Source: Haliotis cracherodii (taxonomy: Eukaryota). From it: a stretch of 64,000 bases of DNA. The notes under the pieces are model-generated. The model saw only the letters and a list, made by a program, of their open reading frames with translations, was not told the origin of the DNA and did not search any database. The stretch is taken from the NCBI RefSeq assembly GCF_022045235.1, contig NW_027266265.1, forward strand, positions 32,426,001 through 32,490,000. The letters are read 5' to 3'. Within the stretch, counting starts at the first letter, position 1; each line of letters starts with the position of its first letter. The translations under genes and the position numbers were made by a program. Positions 5,928 through 48,600 of this stretch are shown piece after piece.

Positions 5928-8900
5928 ATGGCGACCGCAAGCTCTGCGGGCATCGGTGGAGCCGAACTTCGACAGCGCTATCAGCCAGAACAAGACCCAG
6001 AATGGAATTCAGATTTGCCTTACGGGGGCAAGGTTTATCTTGCTCGGAAGAAGAAGGCCGATCCTACATATGTACGAGTCTTGGAGGTGAGTCAGTTCAC
6101 GGTGAAGTTGGTCCGGGGTCCTGGGACGTTGGTGCCATGTGATGTATTTCAGAACAGTCAGTCATCGAGCTCAGTCTTTATTCAGATCTTGCCAGAAAAA
6201 GAATAAGAATAAGCTTAATTTGTTGGGGCAAAACAAGTATATTTTAGTATTGTATTATTTACATTAGTATGTCGGCGTTTGCAGACAGATAAGATTATTT
6301 CAAATTGCGGTTGAAACCAGTTAATGGGCGCCATCAATGATTGATTAACCTTTGTTGTTATCCACGGGTAGTGATGCGGATCGGTACTGGACACACACAA
6401 CTGACTGGTTCGATAAACTGCGTCTTCGGGTTGATAGCAGAAATGACATCAAGCTTAAAGCAATGTGTGGAGACATTAATTATGGAGATTAATCATCAAT
6501 ATTTAATATTCTGTCATTGATTTTGATCATCTTTCAAATACGTTTAATTTGATAGTCATGTTCTGATTGAGACCACGTCCCTGGATTCATATTTAATTGT
6601 TTCAAACTGCTTTTCATTTAAACTGATTGAAGTATGCAGAATTCCTGCCATAATCATGGCTTTCATGGTAATGAAACATACATTTATTCAGTGTACACAG
6701 TCTTAGTTCTTTCTCAGGATCAGCAATTCTAAGCCTTTTGAAGTGAATTGGGTTGTTTTGGTGTCAAGTAGGGCCAATATTTTACCTTATTTCACAGATC
6801 ATACATACAGTACAGTTTGTAGTAAGTGAGTGAGTTGGGTTTAACTAGTCTTCAGTATTCCAGTCATATCATGGGGTGTCTGCGTTATGTTGGAGGAAAG
6901 CCCAAAGTGAGGTAGGGCTCATGGCGAAACCCACAAGCAAGGGTATTGTGCTGACAAACCTAGAAACATAATTGGGGGAACCGAGATTCGAACCTACAAT
7001 CATAGGTTTCTGCACAGTGATTTGCTTTACCCTTGCTCCCTTTCAATACAACAACAACAAATAAGCAAAGAAAATACAGGTAGGATACAATATGATTGTG
7101 ATTGAAAGTATGCTTATTACAGACCCCTGCCTGCTAGAAGTTGCTAAACTTGTTATGAGAGCTATTTTATGGAATAATCTATGTATTGTCGTACATTCAG
7201 AGTTGAACCTCATCAAACACTGGCTTTTCATGCACTAAGAACTGTCTACTGTTATGAATAATTCCATGCCATCTCAAATATTTTTCTTTCCAAATCGGGG
7301 GGCATGGGTGACCCTGTCTTCTAGGGCGACGCATTTCGCTGTGCAGAGTTGCGTCCCTTGGACGGGCCAGAAACCTATGATTGTGGGTTCGAATCCCGAT
7401 CTATGTTTCTAGGTTTGTCAGCACCATACTCGTGCTCGTGGGTTTCACCGAAGTGGTAAACGTCTAAGACCTGCAAAGGCTTTCCTCCCACATTAAGCAG
7501 ACACGCCACGATATAACTGGAATAATGTTAAAAGCGGCGTTAAACCAAACTCACTCACTCACCCACTCACTTTCTTTCCAAATCACAAGAAAACAAACCT
7601 GCATACATGCTCTTTATTGGGGAGAAGATTTTTCAATATTATTTAATGCTGTTGGTTAGTGGACTGCCTACCCATTCTATATTTCAGGTACTTAAGCTTA
7701 CGGGTGCTGTGTTTCCTACCCATACTATGTTTCAGGTATTTTAGCCAATCCATGCTAAGTTTCAGGTACTTAAGCCTACCGGTGCTATGTTTCAGGTAGT
7801 TCAGTCTACCCATGCTTAGCTTCAGGTTCTTAAACTCAATGATGCTATGTTTCAGGTACTTTATTCTACCCATGCTATGTTTCAGGTACTTTAGCCTACC
7901 CATGCTATGTTTCAGGTACTTTATTCTACCCATGCTATGTTTCAGGTACTTTAGCCTACCCATTCTATGTTTCAGGTACTTTAGGCTACCCATGCCATGT
8001 TTCAGGTTCTTTATTTTACCCATTCTATGTTTCAGGTACTACTGATTGTGTTCACAGTGTCACTGGTCATCTATGCCTACTTCTACTTTGACCACCTGCA
8101 TTTCCACATTGCGCATGCGTATGCACATATGGGCTATGCAACTGCACAGCACCAGGTTGGGCAACGGTACCTGCATGGCAAGGGGATAGACCGACATGCT
8201 GGCAAGGCCATGGAGTGGTTCAGGTAAACATCTAGTTTCTGAAATGACAATATTTTACAGAAAAACAAAACATTTTCCGAAACTGCAGTAATCTAAACTT
8301 GCCAACTATTTTAGACTTGCAACAGCTGTATTGGAAAAATTTGTTTCAGGGTTTGTATGACAGACTATTAAAATGCAAGCAACTTCAGAATAATTTTGAT
8401 AGGTGATCTAAATTAAACTATGAAAGCCAGGGGCCCCTTGTCATAACCCAAATGACGAAGTAAAGTGTGAATTATTTTAGAAGGTGTTCCAAAGGTACAT
8501 GCAAATACCATTGCAGAAAACTTTCATGGACACAAGGACCACTCTTAATATCGAACATTGCTAATTGTTGTGGTGTCGTGGCTTGTTGCCGGCCACTGTA
8601 TTTGGAAATGCTGTCCAAGGCAACATTCATTTATTCACTCACCAGCTTTTACATGTACAACTTTCTTTCAGATTCTAACATGTCATGAAATGTATAATCA
8701 AATAGCAAATGGTTTTTTTCATTCCCAAGGATTGAACACACAACGTTCATATCTGTTTTGTTTGTTTGTTTGTTGTTTGTCGCACTCAGCAATGTTCCTG
8801 CCATATGAGGACAGTCTGTAAATAATCAAGTCTGGACCAGACAATCCAGGGATTGACATCATGTGCATCGATCTATGCAATTGGGATACAATGAGTCTTT

Positions 8901-9932
8901 ATTATGACATGCATCAACCAAGTCAGCGAGCCTGACCACCCGATCCCATTAGTCGCCTTTTATGACAGGCAAAGTTGCCTTCATAGATCGTTTGACCATG
9001 AGTCTAGTGGGGTAGTGTTATAGCCTTGTGGTTAAAGCATTCTCTCATCATGAAGAGTTCAATTTCCCACATGAAGTACCAGGGGTAAACATAACTGCTG
9101 GTCCTTTGGCCCGTGGCTGGCAGAAATAGCAGAAGGCCTGTTGTTACTTGAATTGAGTGTCCTGTAGGACAGGTTGATGGCCCATGCTTATACATGTTGT
9201 GATTCACCTGCAAGATTTGGGGAGTGTCAATGCCAGCTGGTCCTACTGAGATGCTGGTTGTTTTCAGTACTTCTGCTGTTATGTTCAACAATATTTGCTG
9301 ATTCTGCATATTTTCTATTTCAGGAAGGCTGCCGATCAAGGTCATCCCCATGCCTCCTACAACCTGGCCATCGGGTACCTCCGGGGTCTGAAGACTGACA
9401 TCAAAACAGGGTCAGTAGATGGTTACATTCTTATGCAGCAGTAGAAACTAAGGTTTTTGTCCTCTTGTCCTTATTATGATAACATATAGCAATACCCTTG
9501 ACATATTTCCAAAGCTGTTATGTACAAAATTAGTGAACATAGGCATTTCAGCAGAAGAATGTTTGCTGGACCATTCAAAATATAATCAACATATCATTAA
9601 TGTGTGGTTACCTGTGATACCTTGTTCAGTGTGTGGCTCATGCTATCAACCGCTGGTCTGTGTGGCCTGGGTTTGTTTATTTACAACTGCACTCCCTGTT
9701 ATATACCTGGAATATTGCTGATTTGGGTTTTAAAACACTTTCACTCACTTGTTTAGATTCCTGTAGAAAGTGGTAAGTGAACCTTATATATATAGTCCGT
9801 GTGCGCTTTTCTATATGTATGTTATTATGCTTGCAGATAGTAGTATTTCTGCTTGTGATTAATATTATACTTGTAATGTTTATGTTGAGTGTCGGTGACG
9901 ATAAATGCATTTCTGTGTGGGGTGGGAGGTCA

Positions 9933-10339: not shown

Positions 10340-10472
10340 ACTCATTTATTTCTATGTTTTTTGTCTCTTTTACAGAGAAGCCCACACATTGATTCATCAC
10401 GCAGCCTCGAAAGGAGTATCCGAGGCTCACAAGGTCCTCAACGAGGTCTGTGCCAAAGGAGGCTGTGATTAG
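5928..10472 (+). CDS. Uncharacterised single-pass membrane protein with Sel1-like repeats, 176 aa; exons 5928-6086, 8036-8223, 9324-9410, 10376-10472
   Basis: Four GT-AG exons join in frame (531 nt, ends TAG). Hydrophobic segment VLLIVFTVSLVIYAYFYF is followed by Sel1-type motifs AQHQVGQRYLHGKGIDRHAGKAMEWFRKAADQG and HPHASYNLAIGYLRG...EAHTLIHHAASKG. Confidence 0.88.
7297..7570 (+). mobile_element. SINE family B (tRNA-Leu-like head with long A-B box spacing)
   Basis: 14-bp TSD TTTCTTTCCAAATC at 7283-7296 and 7571-7584; B box GGTTCGAATCC; (ACTC)n tail. Confidence 0.88.
7667..8040 (+). repeat. 30-bp minisatellite made of the exon-2 splice acceptor of the Sel1-repeat gene (about 12 units)
   Basis: Unit CATGCTATGTTTCAGGTACTTTAGCCTACC. 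TTCAG|GT recurs in exact 30-nt register from 7735 to 8035, plus once at 7687. Confidence 0.95.
9935..9982. repeat. (TG)n microsatellite
   Basis: Direct reading. Confidence 0.95.
10270..10335. repeat. (CT)n microsatellite 40 nt upstream of an acceptor
   Basis: Direct reading. Confidence 0.95.
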
Positions 10473-11520: not shown

Positions 11521-14500
11521 AAATTAAGTAATTGTTTTCGTCTTCATGTGTGCACTTGTGAGAAAACAAGTTATAATAGCACCAATATTAATGTAATCGT
11601 GTTGAGGTGGGTCAGGTGAAATGGGGTTTAACGCAATGTTTAAGATCATTACACTTGTATAGAGACGCATGTACTAGTGTTGAGACATGTTACATTACAA
11701 TGGGTAGCCTAGTAGGTAAGGTTACTCGTCTCACCTAAGACTGGGTTTGTTTCTCTACAGGGGTACAATGTGTGAAGCCCATTCCCTGTGTTAACATCAT
11801 GATTTGGATGAGTCTTACTGAATGTGGAGCAAACCCTTAGGGCTCAATCTGTATGTCTGTTACCTACAATTTGTGGACTGTTCTTATTAAGAGTTTCCAA
11901 ATCCACCAGGCTACACCATGAGTTTGAAAAAATTGCTGTTTCTAGATATTTTCATTTCAGAAAAATATCCAGCAGAGAATATGTTTGTGCATATTTTCAA
12001 ATTATTAAATTCTATTTATGCAATAAAGTTTTTTACTGATATTAAATATTCAATATTTTATTTGTGTTGCAGGGAGCATTTTTACACATATAAAAGATGT
12101 TGTTAGAGATGTAGAAAAAGCAATTTACACTAATTGTGACCAAAATTTAAACATTTATTAGTATTTTGTTATCGGTTATTACCTACTACGAAATGTTCAT
12201 GTACGTATGTTTGTGTTGGCTGTTTAATTTTGGAAGGGAGTATGATTTAAATATTTTGTTATTATTTGAATTTCAATGATTTTGTCACTATGGTATCTTC
12301 TCATGGATGGTTGCCAGCGATGGAAACTAACATTTAAAACCATTTAAAAATGGCAATGTTTTACTGGTTGTAATAATACCTTAAATATTGGGCAGTTTGG
12401 AAAGGACTATAGGACCAGTGGCGATTTTTATCTCTGGTTTCAGTTTACCTGTGTTAGAAATGTTCAATGGGTTAATGAATGTGTGTTGTTTTTCTATATG
12501 ACATATGGTAACTTGTCAAACCTTTCATATGATTTCACTGTTGTTTTGTAGAGCTGAGGACCTATTTTGGTCTTATCAATACTTGGAGAGTTGGGATTGT
12601 TCAGTATGGGGACAAAACTAAACTTGCAACCAAGGCAGCTGTTAAACTATATGAATTTTCATGTTTTTATTTAAAGGACAAGAAAAAGAACAAACAATAT
12701 TTTCAGTTCACATTTTATATCCCCTCACCTTTTGTTTATTCAATGCTTTTTATGCTTTTGTTGTGCTTTTATTCCATTCTGTGCTGCCTTGTTTTAGAAG
12801 ATGGTTTGAAATGTTTTCATGTGATGTCAGTGTTGGTACAGGCCACAAGTACAACATGAGACAGTGTGCAAATGTGTAATCCCAGTATGTACCATATGTT
12901 CACAAGGTCTCATGCTGATGGAGGATGCTGCTTAGCTTCTGCTGCTGTTATGTATGTGCTGTATACACTACTATTTGTTATGTTACATGTTGAGAAATAA
13001 AAACTATCTAATATATGTACTCTTCTGTCATATTATTTCTTTTTTTCATTATGATTGAATGAGATTGTTGATCGAAGAAGCTATCTTGTGATTCCTGTTT
13101 GCTGACAGGATGGATTGTTGTTCATGCTATCAGCCTATAGTATGTTTGGTTATGTACAAGGTGATGTGATAAAGATGTAATATTGTGACCTTTGGAGTGA
13201 AACAACACCCGCTCAGACATGATGAAGTCCTGACGGAAATGAAATGGACAAATAACGGTTGCTCTGTTACATGTTCTGTGTAAATGTTGAAATATTGATA
13301 GGCGGTGCAGTGTGGGATTTTACTGACGCTTCTTTCAGTTAAGATTAGTTAAAGTGAAGTGATAGGTAAAGTTATCTCTCTTGGATCTTAAATCAGTATT
13401 TAGTACTCTTACAATCAAAACAAACTTTTAATTTTATAGTTTGCATAATGTATATAATGAAAGATAACACTGTGTAGGTCTAAATATAGAATAAAAAGCA
13501 GATGTTTACACTAATTTTTGTCAAGATTTATACTTTAATATGATTGAGGACAACCTCCTTGATCTGTATATACTTGGAATGGGGAACATGGAAATCCGTG
13601 CCTTGTATGTTTTAGCGGACTCCTACAGAAATGTTGGATAATCAACGAGATGACTCGTACCAAAAACAACATATTAAATCTTACACAATTAAGATATATA
13701 TGATTTTAAACATTATTCGCTTCTGTTAATATATATTTATCTGTAGCAATGACCCGGATATGATATTTAACCCTGTAGATGCTGTAGCGCCCGGGATGTT
13801 ATTTTGAAACAATAGCTTAACCTCCAGAAAAGCTGCTTCTTTGGGACACTGAAAGGGTTAATTGTGTCTGGGATTATCCCACTCAACTTAGTGAGTGAAG
13901 TGTGAATTGAAAATAAATGGGTATAGGATCATTTAGATTTGTGTACGAGTCAACCATATAATGCATGGATGCTCCAAATCAGGTATGGGTCTGGCTGGGC
14001 CTGAATGTAGTTGAGCAGGAACACCCTGATATGTATGTAGTCGAGTACAACACCTCTGGTCTCCACGTAGTCGAGTACAACCTCCCTGGCCTCCACGTAG
14101 TCGAGTACAACCCCTCTGATCTCCACGTAGTCGAGTACAACCTCCCTGGCCTCCACGTAGTCGAGTACAACCTCCCTGGTCTCCACGTAGTCGAGTAGAG
14201 CCTCCCTGGTCTCCACGTAGTCGAGTACAACCTCCCTGGCCTCCACGTAGTCGAGTACAACCTCCCTGGTCTCCACGTAGTCGAGTACAACCTCCCTGGC
14301 CTGTATGTAGTCGAGTACAACCTCCCTGGTCTTCACGTAGTCGAGTACAACCTCCCTGGTCTTCAAGTAGTCGAGTACAACCTCCCTGGTCTTCACGTAG
14401 TCGAGTACAACCTCCCTGGTCTCCACCTAGTCGAGTACAACCCCTCTGGTCTCCGCGTAGACAAATACAGCCTTTCTGGCCTGTATGTAGTCGAGTACAA

Positions 14501-16240
14501 CCTCCCTGGTCCGTATGTAGTCGAGTACAACCCCCATGGCCCGTATGTAGTCGAGTGCAACCTCCTTGGTCTGTATGTAGTCGAGTGCAATCTCCCTGGT
14601 CCGTATGTAGTCGAGTACAACCTCCCTGGTCCGTATGTTGTCGAGTAAAACTTCCCTGGTCTGTATGTTATCGAGTAAAACCTCCCAGGTCTGTATGTAG
14701 TCGAGTGCAATCTCCCTGGCCTGTATGTAGTTGAGTACAGCCCCCTGGTCTCCATGTAGTCGAGTACAACCTCCCTGATCTCCATGTAGTCGAGTACAAC
14801 CTCCCTGGTCTGTATGTAGCCGAGTACAGCCTCTCTGGCCTGTAGGTAGTCGAGTACAACCTCCCTGGCCTGTATGTAGTCGAGTACAACCTCCTTGGTC
14901 TCCACGTAGTCGAGTACAACCTCCCTGGTCTGTATGTAGTCGAGTACAGCCTCTCTGGCCTGTATGTAGTCGAGTACAGCCCTCTGTTCTCCATGTAGTC
15001 GAGTACAACCTCCCTGGTCTCCACGTAGTCGAGTACAATCTCCCTGGACTGTATGTCGTCGAGTACAGCCCCCTGGTCTGTATGTAGTCGAGTACAACCT
15101 CCCTGGTCTGTATGTAGTCGAGTACAACCTCCCTGGTCTGTATGTAGTCGAGTACAACCTCCCTGGTCTTCACGTAGTCGAGTACAACCTCCCTGGTCTC
15201 CACGTAGTCGAGTACAACCTCCCTGGCCTGTATGTAGTCGAGTACAACCTCCCTGGTCTTCACGTAGTCGAGTACAACCTCCCTGGCCTGTATGTAGTCG
15301 AGTACAGCCCTCTGGTCTCCACGTAGTCGAGTACAACCTCCCTGGTCTCCACGTAGTCGAGTACAACCTCCCTGGTCTCCACGTAGTCGAGTACAACCTC
15401 CCTGGTCTTCACGTAGTCGAGTACAACCTCCCTGGTCTCCACGTAGTCGAGTACAACCTCCCTGATCTCCATGTAGTCGAGTACAACCTCCCTGGTCTGT
15501 ATGTAGCCGAGTACAGCCTCTCTGGCCTGTATGTAGTCGAGTACAACCTCCCTGGCCTGTATGTAGTCGAGTACAACCTCCTTGGTCTCCACGTAGTCGA
15601 GTACAACCTCCCTGGTCTGTATGTAGTCGAGTACAGCCTCTCTGGCCTGTATGTAGTCGAGTACAGCCCTCTGTTCTCCATGTAGTCGAGTACAACCTCC
15701 CTGGTCTCCACGTAGTCGAGTACAATCTCCCTGGTCTGTATGTCGTCGAGTACAGCCCCCTGGTCTGTATGTAGTCGAGTACAACCTCCCTGGTCTGTAT
15801 GTAGTCGAGTACAACCTCCCTGGTCTGTATGTAGTCGAGTACAACCTCCCTGGTCTTCACGTAGTCGAGTACAACCTCCCTGGTCTCCACGTAGTCGAGT
15901 ACAACCTCCCTGGCCTGTATGTAGTCGAGTACAACCTCCCTGGTCTTCACGTAGTCGAGTACAACCTCCCTGGCCTGTATGTAGTCGAGTACAGCCCTCT
16001 GGTCTCCACGTAGTCGAGTACAACCTCCCTGGTCTCCACGTAGTCGAGTACAACCTCCCTGGTCTCCACGTAGTCGAGTACAACCTCCCTGGTCTTCACG
16101 TAGTCGAGTACAACCTCCCTGGTCTCCACGTAGTCGAGTACAACCTCCCTGGCCTGTATGTAGTCGAGTACAGCCCTCTGTTCTCCATGTAGTCGAGTAC
16201 AACCTCCCTGGTCTCCACGTAGTCGAGTACAACCTCCCTG

Positions 16241-16347
16241 GGTCCCGTTCCTCAAAGCGATCTTAGCACTACGATGATCGTAAACCTATGTTAAAGTATG
16301 GGACTTACGATCACCTTAGTGCTTAGATCGCTTTGAGGAACGGGGGC
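16241..16347. mobile_element. 107-bp hairpin MITE, PIF/Harbinger-like, CTG TSD
   Basis: Arms of about 43 bp beginning GGTCCCGTTCCTCAAAGCGATCTTAGCACTA; CTG on both sides (16238-16240, 16348-16350). Confidence 0.85.
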
Positions 16348-16948
16348 CTGGTCTGTATGTAGTCGAGTACAGCCTCTCTGGCCTGTATGTAGTCGAGTAC
16401 AACCTCCCTGGTCTTCACGTAGTCGAGTACAACCTCCCTGGTCTTCACGTAGTCGAGTACAACCTCCCTGGTCTCCACGTAGTCGAGTACAACCTCCCTG
16501 GCCTGTATGTAGTCGAGTACAACCTCCCTGGTCTTCACGTAGTCGAGTACAACCTCCCTGGTCTGTATGTAGTCGAGTACAACCTCCCTGGTCTGTATAT
16601 AGTCGAGTACAACCTCCCTGGTCCGTATGTAGTCGAGTACAATCTCCCCGGTCTGTATGTAGTCGAGTACAGCCCTCTGTTCTCCATGTAGTCGAGTACA
16701 ACCTCCCTGGTCTCCACGTAGTCGAGTACAACCTCCCTGGTCTGTATGTAGTCGAGTACAACCTCCCTGGTCTCCACGTAGTCGAGTACAACCTCCCTGG
16801 TCTTCACGTAGTCGAGTACAACCTCCCTGGTCTCCACGTAGTCGAGTACAACCTCCCTGGTCTGTATGTAGTCGAGTACAGCCCTCTGTTCTCCATGTAG
16901 TCGAGTACAACCTCCCTGGTCTCCACGTAGTCGAGTACAACCTCCCTG

Positions 16949-17055
16949 GGTCCCGTTCCTCAAAGCGATCTTAGCACTACGATGATCGTAAACCTATGTT
17001 AAAGTATGGGACTTACGATCACCTTAGTGCTAAGATCGCTTTGAGGAACGGGGCC
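16949..17055. mobile_element. 107-bp hairpin MITE, duplicate of 16241-16347
   Basis: Nearly identical sequence with CTG flanks; 708 bp from the first copy. Confidence 0.85.
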
Positions 17056-19059
17056 CTGGTCTGTATGTAGTCGAGTACAGCCTCTCTGGCCTGTATGTAG
17101 TCGAGTACAACCTCCCTGGTCTTCACGTAGTCGAGTGCAACCTCCCTGGTCTCCACGTAGTCGAGTACAACCTCCCTGGCCTGTATGTAGTCGAGTACAA
17201 CCTCCCTGGTCTTCACGTAGTCGAGTACAATCTCCCTGGTCTGTATGTAGTCGAGTACAGCCCTCTGTTCTCCATGTAGTCGAGTACAACCTCCCTGGTC
17301 TCCACGTAGTCGAGTACAACCTCCCTGGTCTGTATGTAGTCGAGTACAGCCTCTCTGGCCTGTATGTAGTCGAGTACAACCTCCCTGGTCTTCACGTAGT
17401 CGAGTACAACCTCCCTGGTCTTCACGTAGTCGAGTGCAAATCCCTGGTCTGTATGTAGTCGAGTACAGCCTCCCTGGTCTGTATATAGTCGAGTACAACC
17501 TCCCTGGTCCGTATGTAGTCGAGTACAATCTCCCTGGTCTGTATGTAGTCGAGTACAGCCCTCTGTTCTCCATGTAGTCGAGTACAACCTCCCTGGTCTC
17601 CACGTAGTCGAGTACAACCTCCCTGGTCTGTATGTAGTCGAGTACAGCCTCCCTGGTCTGTATGTAGTCGAGTACAACCTCCCTGGTCCGTATGTAGTCG
17701 AGTACAATCTCCCTGGTCTGTATGTAGTCGAGTACAGCCCTCTGTTCTCCATGTAGTCGAGTACAACCTCCCTGGTCTCCACGTAGTCGAGTACAACCTC
17801 CCTGGTCTGTATGTAGTCGAGTACAGCCTCCCTGGTCTGTATGTAGTCGAGTACAACCTCCCTGGTCCGTATGCAGTCGAGTACAATCTCCCTGGTCTGT
17901 ATGTAGTCGAGTACAGCCCCCTGGTATGTATGTAGTCGAGTACAACCTCCCTGGTCTGTATGTCGTCGAGTACAATCCCTGGCCTGTATGTAGTCGAGTA
18001 CAACCTCACTGGTGCGTATGTAGTCGTATGAGAGAATAGGGCGCCGCCATCTTTGGTACAGAGATCGTGAGTTCGAATCCGGTTTTTTTTTCAACACCAT
18101 AGCAGTGGTTAACGTCTGATATCTGCATTACTTCGGGCTTTCCTACCAAATTTAGCTGACACGCCGTGATATAACTGGAATACTGATCAATCCAACTCAA
18201 TCTCCCATGTAGTCAGTCAGTCAGCTGGAGACACTGATGTCACTCTCCGTGCATACTGTTGTTTGACATGACCGACCCTGACATATAGACTTACTACACA
18301 CGCGCCCTTCTCTCCTCGGTCTAATCCGGCTTTTCTTAACCCTGAACGAAGAAATAGACCTTTCGATAACATAGTAAGATATATCAAAGAAGTTATATTA
18401 ATCAGATGTGGGGTATTAAAAGTCTCAGTATGATCGAATCTAACTACATCTGGCGTATATTTACACGATAACGCACATGTATTCTCACATAATATGAAAA
18501 TCCTGTAACTTTGAACGAATGTAACATTAGTTTGGATAATGAGGGATTTGAGAAGTAACTAAATGCAAAGATTATCTCCGGAGCAGATATTCTAGGGAAG
18601 GGGGAAGTGGAACTATATATTTGCCTCTGGTTTTACAAACAAATAATTGTTCGCTTGTTATCCTGGGTGTCCTGTCAAAATGTAACACACACATATAAAT
18701 TAAAATGTTTCCCGGTGCAAAGGTGACATTCGAATTAACTTTTTGTGACAAATTCAAATATAATGGATCACCTAAGTACCCAAGTACATATTATTTGTAT
18801 TGTATGCCTAACATTTCATACACAAGTTTTCTCAATCAAAAGAACAGACTATTTGCTATCTTCGATCTTCTTGCAATGAACATTATCAACCACATGGAAC
18901 AACATCACTGGTCGGACGAAAATCATTATTAACGGAAATAATACAAACAAATTAATTAAATCAGTGTGTGTTGTAATTGAAAAGAACAAATTAGTACAGA
19001 TTAATTTAACAGTAAGCCATTTATCCTTCACCGGTGTTGATATGGAAACGCGGATAACA

Positions 19060-42611: not shown

Positions 42612-45600
42612 TCACGTATTGTCCACAACTAACACAGTCCGTGCTGGGTAGCCCTGCAACTCAGCCACAACATAGCGGTACTCGTATCTGCCTGCTTCGT
42701 TCTGAAACAATGGACAAATTCAAGAATAAATACAAACTTACGACTGTGTTCAGACAGGGGACCCAGGGCACTGACCCATGAAAACATCAGCAATGCCAAA
42801 TGCAGTCAGGGAAGCAAGCACTGCAATTGTAATCCTGAAACTCAGTCCATCACTTTCAAAGAAACTGGTATCTTGATTCAAATCAAATCGTGATTGAGTA
42901 TGGCTTTATGCCGCTTTTAGCGATATTCCATCACTTTCAAAGTAACAGGTATCTTGATTCAAATCAAATCGTGAGTGAGTATGGTTTTATGATGCTTTTA
43001 GCAATATTTCAGCAATATCACGGAGGAGGACTCCAGAAATGGGCTACATTGTACCCATCATATCAAGTGAAATGCATGGAGTATTTAAGTTGTATCACAC
43101 ATGACTCATGGCATGTCAGCTTTGTGCTGGATGCAAGTTGAAGACGTTTACCGCCTTGATGAAATCTGGGATAATCAGGATTGTATGAGGATCATAATCA
43201 GTGTCCACCAGAACTGTATGAGGATCATTATCAGGATCAATCAGGATTGTATGAGGATCATAATCAGAGTCCATCAGAACTGTATGAGGATCAAAATCAG
43301 GATCAATCAGGATTGTATGAGGATCATAATCAGAGTCCATCAGAACTGTATGAGGATCATTATCAGGATCAATCAGGATTGTATGAGGATCATAATCAGA
43401 GTCCATCAGAACTGTATGAGGATCATAATCAGTGTCCATCAGAACTGTATGAGGATCATAATCAGTGTCCATCAGAACTGTATGAGGATCATACTCAGGA
43501 TCAATCAGGATTGTATGAGGATCATAATCAGAGTCCATCAGAACTGTATGAGGATCATAATCAGTGTCCACCAGAACTGTATGAGGATCATTATCAGGAT
43601 CAATCAGGATTGTATGAGGATCATAATCAGTGTCCATCAGAACTGTATGAGGATCATAATCAGGATCAATCAGGATTGTATGAGGATCATAATCAGTGTC
43701 CATCAGAACTGTATGAGGATCATAATCAGGGTCCAGGATTAATGAGGATCATAGGTCAATGGGCGTCAAGTATATAGTCTGAGAAATGTGAAATAATCAA
43801 AGAATGATCACATAATTAAGCCATAAATAACCATAAGCAAATGTTTACCTGCTTCATCTCCGCGGTAACGGTGGCCTTTCCATGCGGGCCTTCAACATAG
43901 AAGCGCATCCTCATGTGTTTCACGCCACCACTCTCAAACTCTTGATGGCTGCAACACAATACAACACTGTAACTACCATGATGGCTACAACACTGTAACA
44001 ACCCTGATGGCTGCAACACTGTAACTACCATGATGGCTGCAACACTGTAACAACCCTGATGGCTGCAACACAATACAACACTGTAACTACCATGATGGCT
44101 ACAACACTGTAACTACCATGATGGCTACAACACAATACAACACTGTAACTACCATGATGGCTACAACACTGTAACAACCCTGATGGCTGCAACACAATAC
44201 AACACTGTAACTACCATGATGGCTACAACACTGTAACTACCATGATGGCTACAACACAATACAACACTAACTACCATGATGGCTACAACACTGTAACAAC
44301 CCTGATGGCTGCAACACAATACAACACTGTAACTACCATGATGGCTGCAACACTGTAACTACCATGATGGCTGCAACACTGTAACTACCATGATGGCTAC
44401 AACACAATACAACACTGTAACTACCATGATGGCTGCAACACTGTAACAACCCTGATGGCTGCAACACAATACAACACTGTAACTACCATGATGGCTGCAA
44501 CACTGTAACTACCATGATGGCAGCAACACTGTAACTACCATGATGGCTGCAACACTGTAACTACCATGATGGCTGCAACACAATACAACACTGTAACTAC
44601 CATGATGGCTACAACACTGTAACAACCCTGATGGCTGCAACACAATACAACACTGTAACTACCATGATGGCTGCAACACTGTAACTACCATGATGGATAC
44701 AACACAATACAACACTGTAACTATGATGTCTACAACACAAGATAACACTGTAGCTACCATGATGGCTACAACAAAATACAACACTGTAACTACCATGGTG
44801 GCTGCAACACAAGACAACACTGTAACTGCCATGATGGCTGCAACACAATACAGCACTGTAACTACCCTGATGGCTGCAACACAAGACAACACTGTAACTA
44901 CCATGATGGCTACAACACAAGACAACACTGTAACTACCATGATGGCTACAACAAAATACAATGCTGATACTACCATGATGGCTGCAACACAATACAACAC
45001 TGTAGCTACCATGATGGCTACAACACAATACAACACTGTAGCTACCATGATGGCTACAACACAATACAACACTGTAACTACCATGATGGCTGCAACACAA
45101 TACAACACTGTAACTACCATGACGGCTGCAACAAAATACAACACTTTAACTACCATGATGGCTACAACACTGTAACTACTATGATGGCTACAACACAATA
45201 CAACACTGTAACTACCATGATGGCTGCAACACAGTACAACACTTTAACTACCACGATGGCTACAACGCCGTAACTACCATGATGGCTACAACACTGTAAC
45301 TACAATGATGGCTACAACACAATACAACACTGTAACTACCCTGATGGCTGCAACACAATACAACACTGTAACTACCCTGATTGCTACAACACAATACAAC
45401 ACTGTAACTACCATTATGGCTACAACACAATACAACACTTTAACTACCATGATGGCTACAACACAATACAACACTGTAACTACCATGATGGCTACAACAC
45501 AATACAGCACTGTAACTACCATGATGGCTACAACAAAATACAATACTGTTACTACCTTGATGGCTACAACACTGTAGCTACCATGATGGCTACAACACAA

Positions 45601-48600
45601 TACAACACTGTAACTACCTTGATGGCTACAACACTGTAACTACCATTATGGCTACAAGACAAGACAACACTGTAACTACCATGATGGCTACAACAAAATA
45701 CAACACTGTAACTACCATGGTGGCTGCAACACAATACAATACTGTAACTACCATGATGGCTACAACAAAATACAACACTGTAACTACCATGATGGCTACA
45801 ACAAAATACAACACTGTAACTACCATGATGGCTACAACACAAGACAACACTGTAACTACCATGATGGCTACAACACAAGACAACACTGTAACTACCATGA
45901 TGGCTACAACACAATACAACACTGTAACTACCTTGATGGCTACAACACTGTAACTACCATTATGGCTACAACACAAGACAACACTGTAACTACCATGATG
46001 GCTACAACAAAATACAACACTGTAACTACCATGGTGGCTGCAACACAAGACAACACTGTAACTACCATGATGGCTACAACAAAATACAACACTGTAACTA
46101 CCATGATGGCTACAACAAAATACAACACTGTAACTACCATGATGGCTACAACACAAGACAACACTGTAACTACCATGATGGCTGCAACACAAGACAACAC
46201 TCTAACTACCATGATGGCTACAACATGATACAATGCTGATACTACCTTGATGGCTACAACACTGTAACTACCATGATGGCTACAACACAATACAACACTG
46301 TAACTACCAGTATGGCTACAAAACAAGACAACACTGTAACTACCATGATGGCTGCAACACAAGACAACACTGTAACTACCTTGATGGCTACAACACTGAA
46401 ACTACAAAGTTGACTCCAGTGAAAAAAAGACATTTCTTTTTATTCTCAAATAATTTGGGTTTTTTCTTAGCAATTTGAACCTTATTAAGGGACTGGTCAT
46501 TTATCATGAGAAAATGTTACATGAAATGGGTTCTGGGGTGTGCCGTTGGGAGTGTGTGTAAAAAATATGATGCAGTCCTTAGGCCAACCCCCCACCCCCC
46601 TCCTCCCTATTATAATACTATAATAAGTGATCAGTATTACTTCAATGTAATTTTATTTCTTTAACATGGTTACTTTCAGGTAAGATTGCTGATATTGGTG
46701 CCTAAAAGTAACTTAAATTATTTTTTTACATTTTATTTGCTAAAAGCTATACCAAAAAAAGTAGAAATACTGGTAGACCTACACATAAACCTCAAAAACA
46801 AGAATAGACATAAATCTTCAAGATGACCTTCACCCAAGGGAGACAACAATCCATTATTCTGGTTGACTTCTACCATTACCTGACATGTCTTCTACGCCGG
46901 CGTCTCGTCATCTCACCATAGCCTTTCATTGGCTCACCCAGCATACTGATCAACTGAAACACAATAAATACTGTGAAAATACCCTGGTACAAAAGAGTAG
47001 AACTTGATACCTGATAATAGTAATTCAGTATTATTTTACACAGCCAGATACGAGACATATCATGGTGGGCTTAACACATTGTACCCATGCGGGGAATCGA
47101 ACCCATGCATTCGGCTTGAAGGGTTAATGCTTTAGCCATTGTGCTACCCACTGCCCTGCTTTTCATAAAAAAAACCCCACATAGCATGCATAGTGGGAAA
47201 GAAAATGAGTAAAAAGATTCCCCAAAGAAATTAGTTTTAGAAATTGTCACATTAATACAACAAGCCATCCTGGAAAGTAGTTAAAGCTATTTCACTCGCC
47301 CGAACAAATGTTCTCCAGCCTTGACTTATGGGACAGAACTAGTGTTGAATCCTTGACAAGTTTGAACACCATTAGACCAATGTAAATATCATAACAATAG
47401 TGAATACTCACTACTTGTCATAGTTCACAAGTGTTTCTCATGTTTGGATGATATTAACAGAACATAACTCTAAATCAATGAAAAGAAGTTGACATAACTT
47501 AATTATTATCAGCTAACATTCAACTGATCCACTGGCTTCGTCAGCTGCATATTTAAGTCAAAAGCTATACATTTGTAGTGTTAGATTTAACAATGTTTGA
47601 GGTAAGTACATTGACCACCTAACAGTTGTGGCCAGGATCAAACTTCCCTGGTATTGGTCTAGTTGGTGAGTATCAGAGCAGAGTATGACCACGACGAATC
47701 CTGCTGCTACACTTACTTGATCATTCTCCATACATTTCTTCAAAGCATTTCCATATATACCACTTGGACTCTGCGATGAGAACAGCTCTCGGCCAACCAC
47801 ATAGAAAATGATCCCTGGGGCAATCAAAATCATTTACAAATTTATATTTATCACAAATGTCTAGAAAACAAGATTTTACTGCCATTTTGGGGATATAACT
47901 AATCCATTAGCATGAGACAAACGAAAATCTAGAGGAACTGGTTGTTTTCTCCAAAAGCCTAGTTATACTACATACACCATCAATGATTTATCATGTTTAT
48001 GGACTAGCTAGATTTTACAAAAAATATCTACCCCCTGCATTGAGGCATGGAAACAAACAATCCTACAAAAAGCTTATTATTATATTGAACAGTCCACAAT
48101 GATTTCTTTCTCTCAGAAGGAAGAAACTCATGAACATGCATAGCAGAAGGAAAGATAAATTGTACTTATTGTTTTCTGATACATTATCACTTCAAAATGA
48201 GAACATGCAATGGGAGCGCCCAAGGAAGCAACTCTGCACAGTGAATTGTGGCTCTTCAGACAACTGAGCCACCAGTTCCCCTAAAAACAATGTTTGTAGC
48301 ATATGTTGTCAGAATAGGGCTGTAGCCATGGTAACAATATGCGATATGAATCACATAATACATGAAATGATACATGAAACTCAATGCCAGTCATTCTAAG
48401 GATTATTAACATTATTAACCCTTTTATTATAGTTCCTCTTTTAGAAACGTTTTTTCACTCAAAATATAACAAAAAAACAAGTGTTTATTTTTCGTTTTAT
48501 ATATCACTTTATGGAATGTAACCTATACAATCATGTCTCATCATATTTTTCTGTGCCTTGCATTTTGAACTGGAAATCCATGGAATAATACATGGAACGG

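Follow-up and report, generated by a model that had tools for sequence, protein, structure and literature searches.

A twelve-copy minisatellite of an intron-exon boundary in an abalone Sel1-repeat gene, with regular splicing of the major form

Intron 1 of a Sel1-repeat membrane protein gene in the abalone Haliotis cracherodii ends in a minisatellite whose unit carries the splice acceptor and the start of the next exon. We analyzed the window, a stretch of 64,000 nucleotides containing this gene, together with samples of the abalone genome, assembled contigs and homologous proteins. The array is real and resembles the boundary minisatellites described in amphioxus as mirages: its unit spans the exon-intron boundary, and its extra copies are intronic and carry splice signals. 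We consider it likely that the eleven extra copies are silent, neutral passengers of the intron. Splicing in the main contig of all four runs compared, which represents the major form, stays regular despite the array.

Results

Anatomy of the array

TTCAG|GT occurs twelve times within 7660-8040 by sequence scan, and the CAG|GT copies span 7688-8036. The acceptor is spelled TTTCAG in 11 of the 12 copies and CTTCAG in the remaining one. First exonic bases fall at 7688, at 7736 and thereafter every 30 nt up to 8036; copies 1 and 2 are 48 nt apart and all later intervals measure 30 nt. Two calls came from TRF: a 30-bp array of 10.9 copies (7715-8040, 80% matches) and, at 7667-7763, a 48-bp pair. 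The consensus of the array is identical to the start of exon 2 over five nucleotides, GTACT, and then diverges. The repeat unit is thus 25 nt of intron end plus 5 nt of exon 2 start, in register with the used acceptor. Units differ from the last one at 2-8 of 30 nt, and the copies at 7886 and 7946 are nearest to the used site (28/30 nt identical, with one branch-like motif each). Elsewhere in the window TTCAGGT is found five times on the plus strand and four times on the minus strand; the 12 copies are one amplified seed and not 12 separate events. All 11 extra CAG|GT sites lie inside the 1949-nt segment that is spliced out. An open frame of 131 aa crosses the array on the minus strand, and we took it as a by-product of the repeat.

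Offsets of all 12 acceptors to 8036 are multiples of 3, which places every copy in frame. The ten earliest acceptors nonetheless run into a stop at or before the TAG at 7982-7984, itself 239 nt upstream of the end of exon 2, and in the 7886 and 7946 copies an in-frame TAG follows directly. Only 8006, which would add the ten residues VLYFTHSMFQ, and 8036 are free of stops. Nonsense-mediated decay is triggered by a stop that lies far enough before the next junction. The first-pass annotation had described a ladder of twelve acceptors with a 25+5-nt unit, an in-frame gain of ten residues from the acceptor after 8005, and a stop for every earlier acceptor in register; motif positions, the unit table and translation bear these points out, the last for all ten copies. 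The 30-bp unit that it gave holds for the later copies but not for the first interval. Duplication of an intron-exon boundary is the best reading of the array's origin.

The host gene

Translation of the four exons listed in Table 1 is identical to P0001, a protein of 176 aa with NCBI entries in H. cracherodii and H. rufescens, one Sel1 repeat and a hydrophobic stretch spanning residues 51-69. All three abalone proteins compared are 176 aa long. Exon 2 begins with a Val codon, which is the source of the GT in AG|GT. The residue following the junction is Val in the three abalone proteins and Gly, Ile or Ala in eight other homologues, so this GT is a valine codon and not a conserved signal. No gap or insertion was present at the exon 1/2 junction in any of nine aligned homologues.

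Two further features of the gene were recorded. Donor 2 (CAG|GTAAAC, 8224-8229) lacks a G at +5 yet is used in 4/4 runs. Introns 1 and 2 hold very high-copy dispersed repeats at 6800-7040, 7290-7570, 8227-8400 and 8780-9050, with a summed contig depth of up to about 1e6 and, at 8227-8275, many genome matches.

Table 1. Features of the Sel1-repeat gene and its boundary array (window coordinates)
Feature	Position	Strand	Basis
Exon 1, coding part, Sel1-repeat membrane protein; phase-0 donor GAG|GTGAGT	5928..6086	+	P0001 match; spliced contigs in 4/4 runs
Intron 1, 1949 nt	6087..8035	+	GT..AG joint in runs X1, X2, X4, X7
Boundary minisatellite, 12 copies, period 30	7663..8040	+	TRF and unit table
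Ten decoy acceptors upstream (each AG preceding a first exonic base, 7688 to 7976)	7686..7975	+	in-frame premature stop for each
Last in-frame TAG of the array	7982..7984	+	AG of this stop at -23 relative to acceptor 8006
Eleventh acceptor AG, sole stop-free decoy (+VLYFTHSMFQ)	8004..8005	+	6 T in 20 nt, without branch-like motif
Candidate branch-point motifs, A at 8013 and 8018	8010..8019	+	predicted, YTNAY scan
Used acceptor AG, twelfth copy	8034..8035	+	transcript joint and ungapped homologue alignment
Exon 2 (188 nt), encoding the hydrophobic segment and the larger part of the Sel1 repeat	8036..8223	+	contigs; P0001 match
Exon 3	9324..9410	+	P0001 match; exon 2-3 joint in 4/4 runs
Exon 4, coding part including stop	10376..10472	+	P0001 match; beyond the stretch compared with contigs

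Acceptor use in transcripts

We compared the gene with assembled contigs from 4 of 22 runs, none of them recorded as RNA, drawn from four studies with four organism labels. The main contig in each of the four joins 6086 to 8036 (depth 287, 25, 77 and 59) and continues into exon 3. Together with the ungapped alignment of 9/9 homologues, this supports, for the major form, the earlier proposal that only the last copy, at 8035/8036, starts the conserved exon. The organism labels of these runs differ from that of the window, 1-7 letters of exon 2 differ from it, and copy numbers may differ as well. Joints to a decoy acceptor were absent among the 15 joints listed for the four runs, 404 further joints lying outside the listing; assembled contigs lose rare forms, and the result covers the major form. 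Because nonsense-mediated decay removes stop-carrying products, use of decoys could be invisible at steady state.

Intronic contigs of low depth covered the first part of the array in two runs (X2, 7517-7872; X4, 7565-7860). The array is therefore present in organisms that use 8036. Over this part the alignments contain gaps of 30 letters in X4 and 22 in X2, at a depth of 3-4, with the position of the gap not given and under other organism labels; array length in these organisms may differ from that in the window.

Choice of the last copy

We scored the copies with an acceptor matrix built from 57 script-called abalone acceptors at LDLa exon boundaries. The 12 copies score 5.9-8.4 bits and rank at the 26th-56th percentile of the called acceptors, with 7.5 for the used site at 8036 and 8.4 for the decoy at 7976. 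Since decoys score like 8036 and two of them differ from it at 2/30 nt, the context of the AG alone is not decisive, which counts against a simple reading. We then searched -40 to -15 for YTNAY, a branch consensus that occurs there in 37/56 called acceptors against 481/1200 random places. Two motifs precede 8036, which is unique among the copies; one each precedes 7736, 7886 and 7946, and none precedes the other 8 of 11 decoys, including 8006. In addition, position -23, which holds a branch-like A in the used site, falls on an AG in 6/11 decoys. These results suggest that position next to the exon and a better branch region may together fix the choice of acceptor.

In exon definition, the exon is recognized as a unit. 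Near-identical acceptors spaced at 30 nt, of which the last is used, are hard to fit to simple scanning for the first AG; scanning fits only if exon definition or the choice of branch point is governed from the exon side. Such arrays offer a natural test of how acceptors are chosen.

Frequency of boundary arrays in the abalone genome

To set the locus against the background of the genome, we sampled 160 evenly spaced stretches of 10 kb (1.6 Mb) and called arrays with a period of 15-100 and at least 4 copies. The sample contained 179 arrays, or 112 per Mb, covering 9.5% of bases. Splice motifs in 163 unit families were compared with 300 dinucleotide shuffles: TTTCAG occurred in 3 against 2.6 expected, GTRAGT in 11 against 14.8, AGGTRAG in 0 against 2.5, TTNCAGG in 7 against 2.9 (p=0.023) and CAGGT in 25 against 15.4 (p=0.010). 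CAGGT and TTNCAGG lean upward, and no enrichment among the unit families survives correction for 11 motifs.

We tested the association of arrays with exon boundaries from both directions. Starting from arrays, we searched Pfam with the 349 open frames found at 333 array ends and obtained 8 matches, of which 2 to transposons were set aside, leaving six gene exons; sensitivity was low, as Pfam also misses exon 2 of the Sel1-repeat gene when given alone. The boundary lay inside the end unit in 3/6 of these exons and nearby in the other 3 (expected share 0.45, P=0.55). The three end-unit cases are a TPMT donor, confirmed by a PDB match, a strumpellin acceptor and a weak PAXNEB donor, whose match (L174) is below the curated cut-off and has no PDB match. 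Starting from exons, 30 LDLa loci from about 12 regions yielded predicted boundaries at 57 acceptors and 55 donors. Arrays lay on 2/112 boundaries (1/57 acceptors and 1/55 donors) against 1.27 expected (P=0.36; 95% interval 0.2-6.3%), with the donor-side copy test using slightly different anchors from the null. Kinase and P450 loci (60 loci) were left out, being mostly long or single exons; one kinase region, at G000:C12:28406365-28415066, holds six near-identical single-exon genes in tandem at a spacing of about 1.6 kb. In these two small samples, boundary arrays occur at about the chance rate for the density of minisatellites; the tests are small and the exons not independent, which leaves room for a 2-3-fold excess.

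Other boundary arrays

A second acceptor array lies in the window on the minus strand, where 67 copies of TGYAG|CCAT occupy 43943-46396 (about 2.4 kb) in units of 36 and 26 bp and terminate where a TIM21 exon (43849-43948) begins. Annotated abalone Tim21 proteins fit the last acceptor, and some upstream copies would be in frame and free of stops. At another locus (L009:674-2949, minus strand; G000:C34 at about 20.50 Mb) an ABCA-family exon end and its donor are repeated 67 times with a 34-bp unit. The TIM21 and ABCA arrays show that the boundary pattern is common; that two acceptor arrays share one window is a point against the neutral reading. The random sample includes a strumpellin acceptor array of 51 bp (L059:3532-3937, plus strand) and a TPMT donor array with a 100-bp unit (L075:1158-2120, minus strand), and a donor array of 30 bp at L174:7949-8460 (minus strand) adjoins a PAXNEB/ELP4-like exon with a weak Pfam match. 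LDLa exons carry an acceptor array of at least 44 copies with a 34-bp unit (L265:1-1504) and a donor array of 33 bp whose first units are diverged (L243:1609-2092), both in gene-strand coordinates. The window also contains a 135-copy, 30-bp array at 14024-18026 (4 kb) with raised GC that adjoins a dispersed repeat, and no exon was seen at its ends by eye.

Discussion

Relation to known systems

Amphioxus mirages are described as tandem duplications of exon-intron boundaries that leave splicing regular, in Adh3, the globins BflGb6 and BflGb9, troponin C and PGBD5 (PMC3087553; PMC3902484). Like them, the abalone array repeats the 3' end of an intron and the start of the next exon in tandem, and BflGb6 does exactly so, repeating an intron 3' end and the start of exon 2 (PMC3087553). 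The abalone unit falls within the range of 10-72 bp given for amphioxus Adh3, and both systems have units with AG/GT, normally spliced mRNA and end units that are more diverged than inner ones. The abalone case differs in having a gastropod rather than a cephalochordate host and in that 12/12 units retain AG|GT, all in frame. The amphioxus Adh3 minisatellite is reportedly unstable in somatic cells.

Partial parallels exist in human genes. The CBS allele 844ins68 duplicates an intron/exon junction, and the account of it has the distal site strongly favored and the mRNA normal (PMC2630376); its wording there is "donor", yet the passage describes the junction of intron 7 with exon 8 and cites a paper on 3' splice sites. 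As in the abalone gene, the site nearer the body of the exon is preferred, but 844ins68 is a single duplication of 68 bp that masks a disease mutation rather than a 12-copy array. On the donor side, a 37-bp VNTR in intron 7 of F7 is described, from minigene tests, as repeating a donor in copies that can function yet stay silent, with the exon-adjacent one winning (PMC1557585), and the end unit of the 31-bp CBS VNTR c.1444_1467+7(16_21) is described as spanning an exon-intron boundary (PMC2630376). The end unit lies across the boundary in both VNTRs, as in abalone, but at a donor and not an acceptor. The tandem dual-specific AGGT sites of UBC, described as spliced at several sites (PMC10809524), also place AG|GT in each unit at in-frame spacing; the UBC units, however, are coding monomers of 228 nt, whereas those of abalone are 30 nt long, intronic and stop-carrying, with one site seen in use. 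An abalone intronic array of 27 bp has been described in passages that do not mention a boundary (PMC6905558), and we found no published report of the array at the Sel1-repeat locus in the literature on Haliotis intronic minisatellites and amphioxus mirages. The structure is a named and published kind, of which the abalone locus is an added member.

Alternative readings

Extra acceptors might have functions, and we weighed three. The decoy ladder could be an expression dial: transcripts spliced to upstream copies would gain a stop and be degraded, so that more or better copies would mean less protein, and copy-number-dependent use of decoys followed by decay would amount to a fast-mutating heritable control. 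Decoys score similarly to the used site, the 7886 and 7946 copies retain a branch-like motif with a TAG directly behind it, and ten of the eleven decoy products would have their stop at least 239 nt before the next junction, as the distance rule for decay demands. The gaps in X4 and X2 suggest variation in length, and human tandem repeats have been described as associated with variation in splicing (PMC10078293). Against this stand the lack of a decoy joint among those listed for the four runs, the 8/11 decoys without a branch-like motif, and the mirages and F7 array, which give no aberrant mRNA in the accounts cited above; boundary arrays at chance frequency, moreover, do not need selection. 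Such a dial is, in our judgment, unlikely. We give far less credence still to a regulated isoform made from 8006, in which ten residues would lengthen the segment before the membrane helix. The addition keeps the frame, contains no stop and barely alters the hydrophobic peak (KD 2.19 vs 2.37), but 8006 lacks a branch-like motif, carries an AG at -23 and shares the lowest T content, and the predicted 186-aa form was absent among 3 cluster members and 9 homologues, as was its joint among those listed. Stepwise, recursive removal of the intron would splice exon 1 to an upstream AG, regenerate a donor and splice again to 8036, yielding the same mRNA as that observed. Drosophila recursive sites are described as very strong, conserved acceptors in very long introns (PMC6110457); the abalone array has the same juxtaposition of AG and GT, in 12/12 copies, but in a 1.95-kb intron, with weak donors and repeats of possibly variable length. 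Its acceptors are middling (26th-56th percentile), and no regenerated donor ranks above the 4th percentile of 55 script-called donors at LDLa exon boundaries, none of the 12 having the G at +5 that 53/55 called abalone donors have. The gene's own donor 2, GTAAAC, scores as low, and 1/55 called donors reads GTACTT, so a low score is compatible with use; the GT, on the other hand, is merely a valine codon kept in three abalone proteins. The array thus shares the AG|GT juxtaposition of recursive sites and lacks their strong acceptor with usable donor and their long intron, which makes stepwise removal very improbable.

The remaining alternative concerns origin: the array could be a copy of a dispersed minisatellite family inserted at the end of the intron, where it supplied the acceptor. 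A 27-bp array on another contig (L010:3471-3830; G000:C12 at about 51.25 Mb) resembles the unit with a score of 37, higher than 9780/9780 shuffled units; no exon was seen alongside it, and the resemblance may reflect chance or shared origin. However, just two other loci are similar to the unit at E<=1, and with about 130,000 arrays expected in the whole genome a rare look-alike is plausible; the second of the two has 13 nt in common with the unit and is a duplication, local in kind, of the end of an ABCA exon. The unit, moreover, matches both the start of exon 2 and the genuine acceptor, and does so in register. Insertion of a dispersed family member is accordingly a slim prospect, and the simplest origin is that the boundary was duplicated locally. 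Of the functional and evolutionary ideas in the first-pass annotation, which had anatomy, product and stops right, none gained support. That repeat number tunes productive splicing is unsupported, as the outcome it had itself named as refuting, use of 8036, is seen in the main contigs of 4/4 runs, though a small leak to decoys could escape assembled contigs. Its reading of stepwise removal was sound in noting AG|GT at each junction but is disfavored because the intron is short and the regenerated donors are weak, and intron gain by tandem duplication fails: there is no new intron, exon 1 joins directly to 8036 and homologues show no insertion.

A probable neutral boundary minisatellite

A neutral boundary minisatellite would account for the array as follows. 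Ordinary minisatellite expansion would have taken a 30-base boundary piece to twelve tandem copies, from a seed that may have straddled the boundary by chance. Expansion would lengthen the intron alone and leave exon 2 intact, and selection may therefore tolerate the array. The exon-adjacent copy would win through exon 2's own donor and enhancers, and the two branch-like motifs, lost from most decoys, may aid the choice of 8036. Transcripts leaking to a decoy would, for ten of the eleven, meet a premature stop and be cleared by nonsense-mediated decay.

Taken as a single locus, the array has little weight: the kind of repeat is known and its main splicing is normal. Were it a dial, comparable dials would sit at 1-2% of exon boundaries (2/112 here), with many in abalone, including the 67-copy TIM21 array; and if copy number did tune output, this would be a rapidly evolving mode of regulating genes in a genus that is both farmed and under threat. 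As a baseline, minisatellites make up about one tenth of the abalone DNA sampled, and boundary arrays turn up close to the frequency expected from that density, which would account for their recurrence without any function.
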